Of a stretch of 38,295 nt of DNA, positions 345 through 35,787 are shown one piece after another. Each line of letters begins with the position of its first letter. Position 1 is the first letter of the stretch. The translations under genes were made by a program, and so were the position numbers. The notes beneath the pieces were generated by a model, which was given only the letters and a program-made list of their open reading frames with translations, was not told the origin of the DNA and ran no database searches. Source of the DNA: Minisyncoccota bacterium (GTDB lineage: Bacteria; Patescibacteriota; Minisyncoccia; Phycocordibacterales; CAIRYW01); assembly GCA_036517135.1 (NCBI GenBank), contig DATDXX010000041.1, positions 1 through 38,295 on the forward strand, given 5' to 3'.

Positions 345-417
345 GGGCCCTTAGCTTAGCTGGTAGAGCGCCTCATTTGCAATGAGGAGGTCACCGGTTC
401 GAATCCGGTAGGGTCCA
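345..417 (+). tRNA. tRNA-Ala (anticodon UGC), CCA not encoded
   Basis: GGGCCCT-TA-GCTT-AGCTGGTA-GAGC-G-CCTCA-TTTGCAA-TGAGG-AGGTC-ACCGG-TTCGAAT-CCGGT-AGGGTCC-A folds as a cloverleaf. It has the G3:U70 pair and is followed by AAA rather than CCA. Confidence 0.92.
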
Positions 418-3795: not shown

Positions 3796-3829
3796 AACAT
3801 TCTGGTATTCTCAAGAATACCAGAATGTT
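3796..3829. terminator. perfect 15-bp stem hairpin between ddl and the IMPase gene
   Basis: aacattctggtattc-tcaa-gaataccagaatgtt. The T-run (gttttt) lies on the plus side although both flanking genes are on the minus strand, so the orientation and role are uncertain. Confidence 0.4.
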
Positions 3830-4836: not shown

Positions 4837-6111
4837 TTATATCAGAAAGTTTTTGCGGCGTAATTTTTTGTGGTATGTGGTAGCGAAACGGTGCGCCTCG
4901 GCATTTGAAAGCAGGATTTCCTTTTTGTATTTGAGGCCTAACTCTTTATTCCCCAGCGCTCCTTTTGCTTTGTGCTTTTCGTCTTTGACCACAGAGACCA
5001 CGGGAATGGTTATGCCTGCTTTCTTCAGCGCTGCACTAGCCGCATTTAATTGCGCCACTACTCCGTCTACAACAATGAGATCCGGCATCTGCCATTCAGG
5101 GTGATTGAGGCGACGCTCCAAGACCTCACGCAAAGCACCTGGGTCATTAGAAGCTTTGTATCCGCGGATTTTGAATTTACGATACGAGTTTTTGTCCGGT
5201 GCTCCATCTACAAGAGCCACCATCACCCCCACCATGTTGCTTCCTCCCATATGCGCGATATCGAAACTTTCTATCCGAAAGTTTCGAGCTTCTAGCTTAG
5301 AGCTGTTGGCTGTTAGAAAAGAATCGGATTTGATAAGAGAGATGTCTTGGATGTGGGTCAAGGCATGGATCTTGTCGCGAAGTATTTTGGCCGCTTCAAA
5401 ATTATGCTCTTTTGCCAGAGCTTTCATGTCCTTCTTCAAATCCTTCGTAAGCGCTTTGATATTTCCTGAAAGAAAAAGCTTGATGCGACGGATTCTTATT
5501 GAGTAGCAATATTTATCCATAGCGCCAATGCAAACGCCGGGGCAGAGGCCGATGGAATAGTTGAAGCACGCTCTTTTAGAATTTAATTTGCACTTCTCGT
5601 CACGATAAGGGAAAATTTTCCGGATAATTTTGAGCGCCTCTTTTAGCTGAGCACCATTCGGAAATGGGCCATACACCTCCGCTAGGCCTTGTCTAGCGGA
5701 GATTAAATCCTTTTTGCGAATGGTCAAAACCTGCGGGAAATCTTCTTTTGTAATAACGACGCAGAGGAAGCTTTTATCGTCCTTTTCTCTGGTATTGTAA
5801 ATTGGCTTAAATTTCTTTATCAAATCCGCTTCCAAGAGCAGGGCTTCAAGGACGGAATCCGTCTTTTTGAAATCAAGTGCGCGGGCCTCCTTTAGCATCT
5901 TTACCAATAGCGGCCCGCGCGTCTCTATCAAATCTTTACCAAAATAACTTTTGACGCGATCCTTGAGGGATGTCGCCTTGCCTATATAAATCGGCTTTTT
6001 CTGCTTATTCAGAAAGAAATACACTCCAGGTGTATCTGGCAAGTTGTGCACTTTTTTGTATTGCATATCGTCTAGAATAGGTGTAATCTCAATTTCGGTC
6101 AAACCCTTCAT
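4837..6111 (-). CDS. uvrC: excinuclease ABC subunit C, short form lacking the C-terminal (HhH)2 domain
   Basis: The protein has an N-terminal GIY-YIG domain (GVYFF...YIGKA), a Cys cluster CFNYSIGLCPGVC, a UVR motif (EHNFEAAKILRDKIHAL) and the RNase H-like endonuclease block FRIESFDIAHMGG...AHRFA. It ends about 30 aa after AHRFA, at 424 aa, versus about 600 aa in model bacteria. Confidence 0.88.
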   Translation of the reverse strand: MKGLTEIEITPILDDMQYKKVHNLPDTPGVYFFLNKQKKPIYIGKATSLKDRVKSYFGKDLIETRGPLLVKMLKEARALDFKKTDSVLEALLLEADLIKKFKPIYNTREKDDKSFLCVVITKEDFPQVLTIRKKDLISARQGLAEVYGPFPNGAQLKEALKIIRKIFPYRDEKCKLNSKRACFNYSIGLCPGVCIGAMDKYCYSIRIRRIKLFLSGNIKALTKDLKKDMKALAKEHNFEAAKILRDKIHALTHIQDISLIKSDSFLTANSSKLEARNFRIESFDIAHMGGSNMVGVMVALVDGAPDKNSYRKFKIRGYKASNDPGALREVLERRLNHPEWQMPDLIVVDGVVAQLNAASAALKKAGITIPVVSVVKDEKHKAKGALGNKELGLKYKKEILLSNAEAHRFATTYHKKLRRKNFLI

Positions 6112-6379: not shown

Positions 6380-8971
6380 TTATTTCAAAACCTTTTTCAA
6401 ATAATGCCCAGTGTAAGATTTGCTATTATTCGCTACCTCTTCGGGCGTGCCCTTTGCCACAAGGTTGCCTCCCCCGTCCCCGCCCTCGGGGCCGATGTCA
6501 ATAATATAATCCGATGATTTGATGAGGTCCATATTGTGCTCTATGACCACCACGGTATTGCCGTGCTTCACAAGACGCTCCAGAATCTCTATCAATTTTT
6601 TGACATCTTCATAATGAAGCCCCACCGTCGGCTCATCCAAGAGATATATCGTCTTTTGGGTATGCGTCCTGTAGAGCTCGGAAGAAATTTTGACCCTCTG
6701 CGCTTCGCCTCCGGAAAGTGTCGTCGCGCTCTGACCTACTTCCAAATATCCGAGCCCTACTTCATTTAATGTGCCTAACCTGTCTGAAATAGCTGGGATG
6801 TCCTCAAAGAATGAAAGCGCCTCCTCCACCGTCATTTTCAAAATATCGTGGATGCTCTTTTTCTTGTATTTTATTTCAAGCGTCTCTTTCATAAATCTCT
6901 TGCCTCCGCACACGTCACAAGTCACATACACCGTCGGCAGGAAGTGCATCTCTACTTCTATCATTCCATTGCCTTCGCATGTCTCGCATCTGCCTCCCTT
7001 TCTGTTGAAGCTAAAGCGCCCCGGCCCCCATCCGCGCACTCTCGCCTCGGGCGTAGCCGCAAACAAATCTCTGATATGCGTCCATGCTCCCGTGTATGTG
7101 GCAGGATTGGAACGAGGGGTGCGCCCGATTGGCGACTGATCTATCAAAATTGTCCTACTCAAATATTCTGTGCCGGAGAATGACGCACAATTGTGTGTCG
7201 CTGCTGTTCTATATTTCCTCTCAAGCCGCGCTTGCAGATTTTTATGCAGTATTTCGTAGACGAAAGAGCTTTTTCCAGAGCCGGACACTCCCGTCACAAC
7301 AACGAACTTGCCCAAAGGCACTTCTACATTCATATTTTTGATATTGTAAATTTTGCCTCCTGCGATTTTTATTTTACCTTTGTCCTGCGTGCGCCTCTCG
7401 TCTGGGATTTCTATCCACTTTTCCTCGCGTAGATATGAAAGTGTGAGAGAGCCGGAATCATTCTTCTTGGCAGTGATTAGGTCGTCCAAATATCCCGAAG
7501 CGACGATGTGCCCGCCATGCACCCCCGCGCCCGGCCCTATGTCTATAATAAAATCGGAGGAAAACATTGTGTCCTCATCGTGCTCTACCACTATTATGGT
7601 GTTCCCCAGGTCCCTTAGATGCAGAAGCGTTTTTATAAGCTTGTCGTTATCCCTGTGGTGTAGGCCTATTGTGGGCTCATCCAGCACATAGAGCGCCCCA
7701 ACGAGCCCGCTTCCAAGCTGTGAAGCGAGGCGAATGCGCTGTGCTTCCCCGCCAGAAAGCGTGTTGGCTCGCCTATCAAGCGAAAGGTATTCAATGCCTA
7801 CATTGACCATGAATTGCAATCTTGCCTGTATCTCCTTTACCACCACCTTTGATATCTCCTGCTCCTTTTCGCTCAAATGAAGCTCAGCGAAAAACTTTGT
7901 AGCATCTTTGATAGACATCGCAGTGAGATCCACGATATTCCTTTTACTCCCAAGATACACATGCAAAGCTTCAGGTCGCAGTCTCTTACCCTCGCAAACC
8001 TTACATGGCTCATAAACGAAAAATTCTCTTGTGCCCAAGCCATTACATTCTGGGCAAGCTCCGTATGGAGAGTTGAAGGAGAAGAGCCGCGGCTCTATCT
8101 CTGGATACGAGAATCCGTCATGCGGACACATAAATTTGGAGGAAATAAGGTGGCTGTCATCTGGCGTCTTTATGCGAAGCAATCCTTCTGATTCGTGGAG
8201 CGCGCGCTCTATAGCTTCATTCAAGCGCTCCTTGAATCCGGCACTATTCTCTTTGAGCTCGGAGAAATAAAATTCGTCCACAAGCACATCGATGCTGTGC
8301 TTTTTGTGCTTTGAAAGGTCTATACGTTCGCGCAATTTATATTCCTTGCCGTCCACCATCACATGCTCGAATCCCTTGCCCAAAAGATCATAAAGAAGCT
8401 GATAGTATTCGCCCTTTCTGCCAACAACTATCGGAGAATAAATTTGGAATCGCAAATCGCTTACTTTCACTCCCATCACCTTCTTCGCCTTAGAATCATC
8501 AATGTGCTCCACCGTGTGCAGAATCGTCTCAAATATTTCTTCTTTTGAGAGCCGTTTTATTTCCCTATCGCAGATAAGGCAGTGCGGCTTGCCGATGCGC
8601 GCAAATAGAATGCGCAGGTAGTCATAAATTTCCGTAATAGTGGCCACTGTGGAGCGAGGATTATTTGAACGGCTCTTCTGGTCAATAGATATCGCAGGCG
8701 ACAATCCTTGTATCTCATCCACATCTGGCTTTTGCATCTGGCGCAAAAATTGCCGCGCATAGCTTGAAAGCGATTCTACATATCTACGCTGACCTTCGGC
8801 GAATATTGTATCAAAAGCAAAAGAAGATTTGCCAGAGCCCGAGAGCCCCGTCACCGCTATCATCTTATTCCTAGGCATCTCCACCGTAATGTTCTTCAAA
8901 TTGTGCGTCCGTGCCCCCTTGACCACAATCTTTTCTACATCTTTATCCAGCTTTTTGACATGTTTATGCAT
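6380..8971 (-). CDS. uvrA: excinuclease ABC subunit A
   Basis: 863 aa with two ABC ATPase modules ([18 protein letters not shown]; LSGGEAQR twice) and zinc-finger Cys clusters ([16 protein letters not shown]...CDVCGGKR). Confidence 0.97.
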
Positions 8972-9955: not shown

Positions 9956-12103
9956 TCAACTTCCTTTCTTTGTTTTCGGAGCAAATGAACCGATTGGAAC
10001 CCCTGATTTCTCTACCAGAGCTTGGATTTCGTCGCGGAGGATTGCTGCTGTCTCAAAGTCAAGCTCTTTGACAGCAGCGTTCATTTGCTTCCCCTTTTCT
10101 TTAATGAACTTCTGGGGATTCTTTTCAAACATTGCATTGTCTATCAAAAGTAAGTTGCTGATAGTTTTCTTGTGTTCGGATTGAATTGTTTCGGTAATGT
10201 CTTTGATAGCTTTCATTATCGTCTTTGGAGTAATGCCATGCTTTTCGTTGTATTCCATTTGGATTTTCCTACGGCGGTTCGTCTCACTTAGCGCATACTT
10301 AATGGACTTTGTCATATGGTCTGCATATAGAATCACCCTGCCTTCAATATTTCTTGCGGCTCGGCCGATGATTTGGATAAGGGATGTCTCGGAGCGAAGG
10401 AATCCTTCTTTGTCTGCATCCAAAATGCCGATGAGCGCTACTTCCGGCAGATCTAATCCTTCTCGAAGAAGATTGACTCCCACCATCACATCAAATTTGC
10501 CTTTGCGAAATTCCGTTAAAATTTGAATCCTATCTAGCGTCTGAATATCGCTATGCAGATACTCGGCTTTTATTTTCTTCTCCTTCAAGAATTCTGACAG
10601 ATCTTCTGCCATCTTCTTCGTAAGCGTCGTCGCTATCACACGAAATCCTGCCTTGATTGTTTTCTCTGCTTCCTCTATGAAATCTTTTATCTGCCCGGGA
10701 TATGCACTTGGAGGTTCAACCTCCTCTAGTGACTTGGAGGTTGAACCTCCAAGTGCAGTCACTGGCCTTACCACAATTACAGGGTCTATAAGCCCGGTCG
10801 GACGGATGACTTGCTCAACGATTTGCTCGCTATTTTCTCTTTCAAGTTTGGATGGCGTAGCTGATGTGTAAATTACTTGTCCTACTCGTTCTTCAAACTC
10901 CTCAAATTTAAGAGGTCTGTTGTCCTTCGCGCTCGGAAGACGAAAGCCGTACTCCACCAGATTCTGCTTGCGCGAGGCGTCACCAGCATACATACCGCCA
11001 ATTTGAGGCACTGTCACATGGGATTCGTCTATCACGGTCAGGAAGTCAACCGTGCCGTCCTTTTTCTTCGGAAAATACGAAAGCAAAGAATCCGGCGGCT
11101 CGCCTTCTGCCTTGCCTGAAAAATGCCTAGAATAATTCTCTATGCCGTTGCAATATCCTATCTCGCGGATAAGAGCCAAATCATAATTCGTCCGCCGCTT
11201 GAGGCGCTCCGCCTCAAGCGGCTTGTTTTCTTTCTCTAATTCTTTTAGCCGATTCTTAAGCTCTTCTTTGATGCTCTGTATCGCTTTATTCTTTGCTTCC
11301 TCATCTGTAATAAAATGCTTCGCGGGGAAAAGGAAAAGGACTTTCATTTTTTCCAGAATTTCTCGCGTCACCGCATCTACTTTCTGGATTTTCTCTATCT
11401 TGTCTCCCTTGAAATCAATTTTATAAATTACTCTCTCTGAAACCGGCATTATCTCTACAGTATTACCGAGCGCGCGGAATTGCCCAGGGCTCAAATCAGT
11501 CGTTGTGCGCTCAAAATGAATACCTACAAATTTGCGCGCCAAATCATTTCTCGCGACATTTTGTCCTACTTCAATTCGCAGATTCACTTTCTCGTACTCT
11601 ACAGGAGAGCCCAAGCCATAAATACAAGACACAGATGCGACGATAATCACATCATTGCGCGTCAGAAGCGCTTGCGTAGAAGCATGGCGCAAGCGCTCGA
11701 TTTCTTCATTTATCATTGCTTCCTTTTCTATGTATGTATCGCTGTGCGCGATATATGCCTCCGGCTGGTAATAATCGTAATACGAGACGAAATAATGCAC
11801 AGCGTTCTCCGGGAAAAATTCGCGATACTCCTGCGCCAATTGCGCAGCCAAGGTCTTATTGTGCGCTATCACAAGAGTGGGCTTGCCGATATTTTTTATT
11901 ACATTGGCGATTGTAAATGTCTTGCCGCTTCCTGTCACACCAAGAAGCGTCTGCTTTCGCATCCCTTTTCTGACACCTTCCGTCAGCGCCTCTATCGCCT
12001 TCGGCTGGTCGCCCGCCGGCTTGAATTCACTTTTTAGCTTGAACTGTTTCAGTTTTTGGCCCATTGAACCACTCATTTTAACATAAAAATAGCGTCCTGC
12101 CAT
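9956..12103 (-). CDS. uvrB: excinuclease ABC subunit B (with a 20-aa in-frame insertion)
   Basis: 715 aa with helicase motifs GVTGSGKT, DESH and TSATP, the block QIIGRAARN, and a C-terminal UVR motif (ELDFETAAILRDEIQAL). Confidence 0.97.
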   Translation of the reverse strand: MAGRYFYVKMSGSMGQKLKQFKLKSEFKPAGDQPKAIEALTEGVRKGMRKQTLLGVTGSGKTFTIANVIKNIGKPTLVIAHNKTLAAQLAQEYREFFPENAVHYFVSYYDYYQPEAYIAHSDTYIEKEAMINEEIERLRHASTQALLTRNDVIIVASVSCIYGLGSPVEYEKVNLRIEVGQNVARNDLARKFVGIHFERTTTDLSPGQFRALGNTVEIMPVSERVIYKIDFKGDKIEKIQKVDAVTREILEKMKVLFLFPAKHFITDEEAKNKAIQSIKEELKNRLKELEKENKPLEAERLKRRTNYDLALIREIGYCNGIENYSRHFSGKAEGEPPDSLLSYFPKKKDGTVDFLTVIDESHVTVPQIGGMYAGDASRKQNLVEYGFRLPSAKDNRPLKFEEFEERVGQVIYTSATPSKLERENSEQIVEQVIRPTGLIDPVIVVRPVTALGGSTSKSLEEVEPPSAYPGQIKDFIEEAEKTIKAGFRVIATTLTKKMAEDLSEFLKEKKIKAEYLHSDIQTLDRIQILTEFRKGKFDVMVGVNLLREGLDLPEVALIGILDADKEGFLRSETSLIQIIGRAARNIEGRVILYADHMTKSIKYALSETNRRRKIQMEYNEKHGITPKTIMKAIKDITETIQSEHKKTISNLLLIDNAMFEKNPQKFIKEKGKQMNAAVKELDFETAAILRDEIQALVEKSGVPIGSFAPKTKKGS
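10704..10756. repeat. 53-bp nested palindrome inside uvrB (21-bp perfect inverted arms, 11-nt spacer)
   Basis: gcacttggaggttcaacctcc-tctagtgactt-ggaggttgaacctccaagtgc. Each arm is itself nearly palindromic (ggaggtt-c/g-aacctcc). The element translates in frame as ALGGSTSKSLEEVEPPSA. Confidence 0.9.
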
Positions 12104-12849: not shown

Positions 12850-12882
12850 AAAAAGCAGTGTTTTGCATATGCAAAACACTGC
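12850..12882 (-). terminator. rho-independent terminator (28-nt perfect palindrome plus T5)
   Basis: gcagtgttttgcat|atgcaaaacactgc, followed on the minus strand by TTTTT. It lies 18 nt after the stop of the 12900..13193 ORF. Confidence 0.7.
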
Positions 12883-15097: not shown

Positions 15098-15207
15098 TTT
15101 ATCCAGCACCAATTTTGTAGAACAAGATAAAGTTGATATCTGTAAGTATGAAATAAATATCACAAAAATCTCAGCGTATCTATTCGGTGAAATTGGTGCT
15201 GGATAAA
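15098..15207 (+). repeat. 110-bp element with perfect 18-bp terminal inverted repeats (copy A), MITE-like
   Basis: The arms are tttatccagcaccaattt (15098-15115) and aaattggtgctggataaa (15190-15207). The interior aligns with copy B at 35677..35787 (for example aaagttgatatctgtaagtatgaaataaatat against aaagtggatacctagaaatgtgaaataaacat). Confidence 0.8.
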
Positions 15208-22521: not shown

Positions 22522-22568
22522 ACCCAGCACTAAATTCAATTAGGAATTCAGTGCTGGGTTTATTTTTC
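22522..22568 (+). terminator. rho-independent terminator after the MarR gene
   Basis: acccagcact-(18-nt loop)-agtgctgggt followed by ttatttttc. Confidence 0.65.
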
Positions 22569-25115: not shown

Positions 25116-25144
25116 AATGCCGCGCTCCGCGCGGCATTTTTTTG
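25116..25144 (+). terminator. rho-independent terminator
   Basis: aatgccgcgc-tcc-gcgcggcatt followed by T5. Confidence 0.8.
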
Positions 25145-35679: not shown

Positions 35680-35787
35680 ATCCAGCACCAATTTCACAGA
35701 ATTAACACAAAGTGGATACCTAGAAATGTGAAATAAACATAGCGCAAACTTATTTACTTTTCTTCACTAAAATTGGTGCTGGATTTA
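35677..35787 (+). repeat. roughly 110-bp TIR element, copy B
   Basis: The left arm tttatccagcaccaattt (35677-35694) is identical to copy A. The right arm aaattggtgctggat (35770-35784) matches at 15 of 18 positions. The interior is homologous to copy A in the same orientation. Confidence 0.8.

Follow-up and report, generated by a model that had tools for sequence, protein, structure and literature searches.

A probable REP doublet of a RAYT-type system translated within the uvrB gene of a Patescibacteria bacterium

The systems of Escherichia and Pseudomonas in which repetitive extragenic palindromic (REP) sequences occur together with a REP-associated tyrosine transposase (RAYT) are reportedly the subject of work by Nunvar from 2010. 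REPs, the inverted REP doublets that form hairpins (REPINs) and their RAYTs have been described in these genera by Bertels & Rainey 2011 (PMC3116915, PMC3337134) and Messing 2012 (PMC3479197). The RAYT is present as a single copy per genome (PMC5581495), and most described REPs are defined by a GTAG or CGTC tetranucleotide 5' of the hairpin foot (PMC3733652, PMC6006769). The enzymes of the IS200/IS605 insertion sequences IS608 and ISDra2 recognise hairpins on single-stranded DNA and carry out transposition without target-site duplication (PMC6006769). Rickettsia palindromic elements (RPEs), which form several families, are selfish palindromic repeats of ~100-150 bp found in frame in unrelated housekeeping genes of reduced genomes (PMC10969869). 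Here we describe a palindromic insert in the uvrB gene of a member of the Patescibacteria, a group that also goes by the name Candidate Phyla Radiation (CPR); it lies in a 38,295-nt stretch of DNA (contig DATDXX010000041.1, positions 1 to 38,295), referred to in its entirety as the window. The organism is ultra-small and of the Paceibacterota/Parcubacteria type. Since the palindrome is a dispersed repeat in this group, both flanks and lies inside a Y1/HUH transposase gene, and has stems that are specific to each locus and compensated, we conclude with good confidence that the uvrB insert is a REPIN-like doublet of REP units belonging to a RAYT-type system widespread in Patescibacteria. REP/RAYT systems, so far studied mainly in Proteobacteria, would thereby be extended to the CPR, in a form that breaks the 'extragenic' rule in that the repeats are translated inside essential proteins.

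The insert occupies positions 10703-10757 of the window on the minus strand, as delimited by arm complementarity and folding. Its left arm (TGCACTTGGAGGTTCAACCTCC, 10703-10724) and right arm (GGAGGTTGAACCTCCAAGTGCA, 10736-10757) are 100% complementary to each other and are separated by an 11-nt loop (10725-10735, minus strand; coding strand AAGTCACTAGA). The original prediction, made from the letters of the window, had reported arms of 21 nt; the inverted-arm element is real, and its perfect arms measure 22 nt, one base longer on each side. Each arm had also been described as nearly palindromic, and GGAGGTT(S)AACCTCC is indeed present in both. Unit A (10732-10754, minus strand; coding strand ACTTGGAGGTTCAACCTCCAAGT, translated as (A)LGGSTSK) is on its own a perfect 23-nt palindrome, which the first four bases of the loop complete, and unit B (10706-10724, minus strand; coding strand GGAGGTTGAACCTCCAAGT, translated as (E)EVEPPS) is an inverted copy. 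Perfect 22-nt inverted repeats are expected by chance ~3e-7 times in a sequence the size of the window, while the 15-mer core, allowing for up to two mismatches, was observed twice against an expectation of 0.03 and was absent from shuffled sequence. The hairpin folds with -29.2 kcal/mol as DNA (z -9.4) and with -48.4 kcal/mol as RNA (z -8.1), values that none of 200 shuffles equalled.

When one genome per GTDB species was scanned for the 19-mer arm, at least 100 stretches were retrieved; 100 of these, hereafter the listed loci, form the basis of the counts that follow. The repeat core, ACTTGGAGGTT(C/G)AACCTCCAAGT, was found at no fewer than about 100 sites with unrelated flanks in at least ~48 assemblies of Patescibacteria or unclassified bacteria. 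Approximately 95 of the 100 listed stretches come from these ~48 assemblies, and the groups among the matches include Saccharibacteria, Niyogi-, Yonath-, Morani-, Sungii-, Nomura-, Lloyd- and Vogelbacteria as well as Paceibacterota. Five listed matches fall outside the CPR and contain the 19-mer alone, not the full palindrome. The listed loci contain at least 83 full 23-mers and at least 130 15-nt cores, again in unrelated flanks, and unit A is identical to the copies at 83 sites. The search of related genomes proposed in the original prediction, carried out with the 19-mer arm, reveals a repeat that is dispersed in many of them. No match to the 23-mer was found in 2.9 million viral contigs, and hence there is no evidence for a phage vector.

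In several respects the family resembles REPs and REPINs: its unit is short (~23 nt), exists in many dispersed copies, and gives rise both to inverted doublets that form hairpins and to long palindromic singlets. Among the listed loci 14 doublets were identified, 12 of them inverted (p=0.006), with spacings of 17-28 nt. The palindrome extends by at least five pairs into its flanks in 15.7% of the copies, compared with 0.4% in a flank-swap null, and these extensions vary in sequence. They match the 'long palindromic REP singlets' that Bertels & Rainey attributed to REPIN excision (PMC3337134). The unit differs from described REPs in being a perfect palindrome, the central base of which is exclusively C or G in the listed loci and so simply marks orientation.

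Loci with clustered copies encode a protein of ~226 aa carrying the motifs YHIFNRG...NPNH(Y/F)HFIL...LFQG...YVNLN. It passes the Pfam cut-off of 23 bits for Y1_Tnp (PF01797), with scores of 34.6 and 33.3 bits. Residues N80, H81, H83 and Y140 are invariant in 40 sequences of the transposase and, judging from these sequences, would represent the HUH histidines and the catalytic tyrosine. A structure model built from the same number of sequences (pLDDT 76) has 4ER8_A as its best fold match in the PDB (E 5.5e-5, TMt 0.62, rmsd 3.7 over 177 columns), a structure of the E. coli REP-associated tyrosine transposase (TnpA-REP) in complex with a REP hairpin (PMC3479197). The TnpA proteins of IS608 (E 7e-4) and ISDra2, which share the homologous Y1 HUH fold, rank behind 4ER8 by a modest margin. 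The protein database lists over 4,000 members of the family, some of them bearing the label 'RayT' from automatic annotation by JGI.

In all eight listed loci that encode the transposase, copies of the palindrome are situated no more than ~40 nt from the ends of the gene, and usually one copy is inside it. The eight genes come from eight assemblies, never two from one, with the genomes sampled only around pattern matches. An independent sample of 80 metagenome loci (L109-L188) was chosen by similarity of the transposase protein only. Palindromes of the family, of the form ACTTGG-nnnn-loop-nnnn-CCAAGT, were present in 65 of them, and their positions relative to the gene recur: ~40 nt upstream, at two fixed internal in-frame sites, and ~40 nt downstream. 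The arm peculiar to the locus was found at 175 of the 182 sites, and 33 arm variants, with fully compensated inner stems, were distinguished between loci. Flanking of a Y1/HUH transposase gene by units of a variant specific to its locus is the signature of REP-RAYT systems (PMC3337134, PMC5581495).

Covariation was tested in a non-circular manner, one internal site being fixed by the protein motif alone; at this site 33 of 72 loci displayed 10/10 pairing. Among 41 sequences picked on the outer protein pattern only, 98% of the cells were paired, as opposed to 20-47% with slid partners, and each of the four inner pairs had undergone 11-16 double-sided changes. The covariation score was 0.41 versus 0.16 in shuffles, 0 of 500 of which reached 0.41. 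A hairpin is thus kept inside the coding sequence of the transposase, and it matches the copies that flank the gene. In this the family departs from REP/REPIN systems, as its transposase gene contains, at fixed positions, one or two copies in frame. We know of no described REP/RAYT system that keeps its own target hairpin inside the transposase gene. The in-frame copies within these genes read L-G-x-x-x-S-K (L009 3439-4119, minus strand; L053 141-827, minus strand; L109-L188; alignments A1 and A4), and the codons that flank them covary as reverse complements (G/T, N/V, S/A, H/V, D/V, N/I, H/M). Many transposase contigs measure only ~1 kb and stop close to the flanking palindromes (P0122-P0240; L110, L137, L176, L182), suggesting that the repeats commonly break short-read CPR assemblies and account for some of their fragmentation.

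REPs are predominantly extragenic; about half of the copies of the Patescibacteria family, by contrast, reside inside open reading frames (ORFs) and are translated. Stop-to-stop ORFs of at least 150 aa contain 52% of the copies in the listed loci and 78% of random positions, which indicates an intergenic bias and yet leaves many copies truly within genes. At least 15 unrelated housekeeping genes host the unit at loops or linkers. The host genes include those for AspRS, ArgRS, Ile/Val-type tRNA synthetases, DNA polymerase I (PolA), RecJ, TsaD, MnmA, YchF, Fmt and TGT, along with UvrC (in two genomes) and GatB (in two genomes, both times in the inter-domain linker). Stop codons are absent from five of the six frames of the unit, and two of these five specify loops that are flexible and hydrophilic. 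Of 57 copies located in ORFs of at least 250 aa, 28 use the LEV(E/Q)PPS reading and 26 the LGGSTSK reading. A third open frame, TWRFNLQ, is used by three copies, all at ORF edges, and is avoided relative to neutral use (p=2e-9). This bias implies that selection acts on the encoded peptide, and therefore that the elements are translated rather than removed. The UvrB protein of the window carries both peptides, LGGSTSK-type and LEVEPPS-type, in tandem. The two peptides can serve as simple annotation flags for such insertions, and the family is offered as an explanation for at least some of the unexplained lineage-specific insertions in CPR proteins.

The host gene, an ORF of 715 aa from the first ATG (9956-12103, minus strand), was identified by its match to solved UvrB structures (E 1e-239); the corresponding database protein (P0001) has 698 aa, which implies a start at 12052. 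In-frame translation of the element, as originally claimed, is borne out by the stop-free reading VRPVT-ALGGSTSKSLEEVEPPSAYP-GQI. The predicted tryptic peptides of the insert are ...VTALGGSTSK and SLEEVEPPSAYPGQIK. It had further been proposed that the palindrome adds a loop of 20 aa between the helicase domains. With respect to solved UvrB structures this is correct, since 20 codons (ALGGSTSKSLEEVEPPSAYP; 10697-10756, minus strand) have no counterpart there and the alignment shows a 20-residue gap at exactly this place. It does not hold for the nearest relatives: relative to the Patescibacteria UvrBs closest to it, the insert amounts to 14 extra codons net (42 nt). The residues added in the inter-domain loop read VT-ALGGSTSKSLEEVEPPSA-YPG. 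The insert follows the strand that closes the first helicase domain (residues 425-429 of P0001) and precedes the helix that opens the next (454-467), and in the AlphaFold model it is coil with pLDDT <50, in agreement with the notion of an unstructured surface linker between two helicase domains.

The loop could be located in 95 of the 120 closest UvrB homologues. In 66 of the 95 it is a 9-residue loop of the form VTxxGxY[KP]G (for example VTGNGAYKG), and in 29 unrelated insertions of 11-42 residues are found at exactly this site. The peptide of the window insert was seen in none of these 95 proteins, and the closest UvrBs have the 9-residue loop without the segment and without the palindrome. 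In Patescibacteria UvrB, indels are frequent in this inter-domain loop, a hotspot at which ~30% of the closest homologues are longer. At the DNA level, eight relatives display three states: baseline loops that lack a palindrome (L001, L002), tandem repeats rich in A and compatible with slippage (L003-L005), and other hairpin-forming inserts (L007, L008). In L008 the loop contains a 23-nt palindrome (2806-2828, TCCCCTAGGGGTACCCTAGGGGA) with the same 10+3+10 architecture as the unit of the window, and the long hairpin of L007 encodes a peptide, GQTRL.., common to P0090. Longer loops were noted in P0007, P0009, P0018, P0022, P0023, P0028, P0041, P0051, P0053, P0055, P0056, P0087, P0090 and others. 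These palindromes and repeats of the UvrB loop may represent further repeat families. A protein search with a 70-aa segment around the loop retrieved only short UvrB fragments with baseline loops and was uninformative as to other REP insertions at this site.

A further palindrome lies elsewhere in uvrB. At 11194-11222 there is a perfect palindrome with 13-nt arms (GCCGCTTGAGGCG-CTC-CGCCTCAAGCGGC), coding for a UvrB motif that is universally conserved, KPLEAERLKRR; reverse-complement codons specify the residue pairs P/R, L/K, E/L and A/R. L001 has a version with 10-nt arms (2334-2356), and in the other relatives the arms are shorter than 9 nt. It could be a coincidence of codon choice or a selected structure.

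The following scenario would account for the uvrB insert. A RAYT encoded by the genome would recognise the hairpin on single-stranded DNA and would cut and rejoin beside it, placing copies at new sites; the precedent for cleavage and joining at hairpins is provided by E. coli TnpA-REP in vitro and by the biochemistry of IS200/IS605 elements (PMC3479197, PMC6006769). That the Patescibacteria transposase mobilises the palindrome is what we infer from these precedents. Copies arriving in genes would persist only if they were in frame and stop-free, if the peptide they encoded (LGGSTSK or LEVEPPS) was flexible and hydrophilic, and if a permissive loop accommodated it, the inter-domain linker of UvrB, as an indel hotspot, being one example. 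The insert is most likely a tolerated passenger and not a functional part of UvrB. We also put forward, tentatively and as somewhat less probable than its converse, that Patescibacteria possess an ancient, phylum-wide REP/RAYT superfamily that is 'translation-compatible', is adapted to gene-dense reduced genomes and repeatedly gives rise to lineage-specific insertions in essential CPR proteins, with a transposase gene that keeps its own target hairpins. Whether compensatory change or concerted copying keeps them there, such internal hairpins would suggest that the gene regulates itself or that it contains a master copy from which the REP variant of the genome is propagated. With a 23-nt hairpin, an enzyme of ~220 aa and natural compensatory variants, the system is compact and testable, and may be of use in studies of hairpin recognition by HUH enzymes and of selfish DNA in minimal genomes.

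Comparison with the other described systems places the family apart from them. In IS200/IS605 elements the gene moves with two different ends as one multi-copy unit, whereas the Patescibacteria palindromes are dispersed without the gene, which is lacking in at least 92 of the 100 listed loci; assignment to IS200/IS605 was rejected for this reason. A clustered regularly interspaced short palindromic repeats (CRISPR) array was likewise rejected, as the spacing of copies is irregular (180-500 nt). To our knowledge, RPEs have no known transposase and are confined to Rickettsia, whereas the present unit is linked to a Y1 transposase and is hosted by Patescibacteria. Membership among RPEs was rejected on size (a unit of 23 nt, or 55 nt as a doublet) and host, although in-frame insertion and conserved peptides are found in both. 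Accordingly, the likeness to RPEs suggested by the original prediction stands as an analogy: the insert is a selfish palindromic repeat in frame, tolerated in a surface loop, which orthologues without it, the dispersed family and the coil conformation all support; it is not an RPE but a doublet of 23-nt REP-type units. RPEs and the present elements both add fold-compatible peptide segments (PMC10969869). The host group was not found to be covered in two surveys of RAYTs (PMC6006769, PMC5581495). We found neither a published link between REP/RAYT systems and Patescibacteria or the CPR nor a paper with the sequence or the peptides, which is no proof that the system is unpublished; no published description of an in-gene translated REP/RAYT form in Patescibacteria was thus found, REP/RAYT systems as such being already known elsewhere.

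Several observations weigh against assigning the insert to a RAYT-type system. The sole NCBIfam match of the transposase is the REP_Tyr_transpos equivalog NF047646, and its scores of 19.8 and 24.5 bits are far below the RAYT cut-off of 80; searches of the PDB by sequence, with a single sequence or a 40-sequence profile, returned nothing significant. No RAYT homologue is encoded in the 38-kb window, nor does the window contain a second copy of the palindrome, even at three mismatches in a pattern scan, confirming the single copy originally reported. The family lacks the 5' GTAG/CGTC tag of described REPs, its conserved part being instead the paired outer stem ACTTGG/CCAAGT: the conserved ACTT of the unit is paired with AAGT, and no conserved unpaired tetranucleotide was found 5' of it, flank positions -4 to -1 being variable with only C enriched at -1 and -2. 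RAYTs whose REP variant is identical share no more than 50-75% identity among themselves, and stem specificity may reflect copying history, not recognition. Finally, the insertion event in uvrB is reconstructed, not observed, the nearest UvrBs being 85% identical to that of the window, the 90% protein cluster of which has one member.

The composition of the doublet itself raises a further difficulty. Unit B is devoid of its own outer ACTT on the side of the loop, and the perfect 22-nt arms include three bases of the flank, TGC/GCA, that do not belong to the element. Therefore, the doublet may have originated in place: after insertion of one 23-nt REP unit, hairpin-templated (template-switch) inverted duplication would have generated the second arm, and the doublet would not itself have been what transposed. 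That singlets far outnumber doublets in other genomes and that the spacing of the latter varies between 17 and 28 nt suggests independent formation of doublets and fits this course of events. On the other hand, REPIN dynamics regularly yields both inverted doublets and palindromes extended into the flanks (PMC3337134), and in L059 there is a doublet whose spacing (26) and C/G order equal those of the window doublet. We regard local formation as a possibility that deserves attention, but as the less probable course; it would alter only the last step, the element remaining a member of the REP family in either case.

A second alternative is that the hairpin was exapted, being kept in uvrB because it regulates the gene, for example through mRNA structure, pausing or attenuation of transcription or the binding of a protein, or because the added loop alters the function of UvrB. 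The original prediction had likewise envisaged that the hairpin might act in regulation or recombination inside a DNA-repair gene; a role particular to such a gene found no support, the unit being present in many unrelated genes. The great stability as RNA (-48 kcal/mol) and the conservation of compensated hairpins inside the transposase gene speak in favour of exaptation, as does the terminator-like character of some intergenic copies, which resemble bidirectional terminators; 11 of 83 copies elsewhere have TTTT no more than 10 nt away. These considerations are offset by the uniqueness of the insert among the 120 closest UvrBs, by the presence of the unit at loops and linkers of so many unrelated housekeeping genes, and by the many unrelated insertions of 11-42 residues accepted at the same site of uvrB. 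No T-run follows the uvrB copy, which lies inside a coding sequence and so does not qualify as an intrinsic terminator; that class was rejected also in view of the low number of copies with a nearby TTTT. Exaptation thus appears unlikely, and a passenger REPIN-like doublet remains the preferred interpretation.

The remaining alternatives fare worse. Palindromes and inverted duplications are known types of artefact, and an inverted chimera might arise during library preparation, amplification or assembly. Yet the insert preserves the frame and is stop-free, its sequence is independently present in at least ~48 assemblies from many studies, and inverted doublets occur at 14 other places, in frame inside real genes, which makes an artefact very unlikely. 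DNA uptake sequences, exemplified by those of Neisseria and Haemophilus, are often arranged as inverted pairs in terminators. Natural competence of Patescibacteria (PMC10633639) would be in keeping with an uptake sequence, but there is one site in 38 kb, and the compensated variation of the inner stem between genomes fits a structure, not a fixed uptake word. Moreover, the half-site 11-mers are rarely seen apart from full palindromes (115 and 104 occurrences in the listed loci against 83 full copies plus partial ones), a rarity which argues against the logic of uptake sequences, and we consider this explanation extremely improbable. The same low probability attaches to an ancestral UvrB loop or a slippage expansion unrelated to any mobile element, which the indel hotspot with its several A-rich tandem repeats might suggest and which is effectively refuted, as no other UvrB among the 120 closest has the peptide and the DNA is an exact copy of the dispersed, transposase-associated 23-mer.

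With regard to the remainder of the window, uvrA is located just downstream of uvrB (6380-8971). An intergenic repeat of ~110 nt, unrelated to the uvrB palindrome and bounded by terminal inverted repeats (TTTATCCAGCACCAATTT...AAATTGGTGCTGGATAAA), occurs at 15098-15207 and, in a diverged copy, at 35680-35784; a shorter hairpin at 22522-22559 has an arm related to it (ACCCAGCACTAAATTC). This repeat might be an element resembling miniature inverted-repeat transposable elements, a small RNA or a terminator. An intergenic perfect palindrome at 25116-25138, followed by a T run, looks like an ordinary intrinsic terminator, and further perfect palindromes are present at 3796-3829 (16-nt arms), 12855-12882 (28 nt) and 5261-5287 (short). 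The segment 36001-38000 has a G+C content of 0.535, compared with 0.37-0.47 in the rest of the window, and no Rfam family was detected in it. Two divergent tRNA-Ala genes, with the anticodons GGC and TGC, are located at the start of the contig (132-205, minus strand, and 345-417, plus strand).

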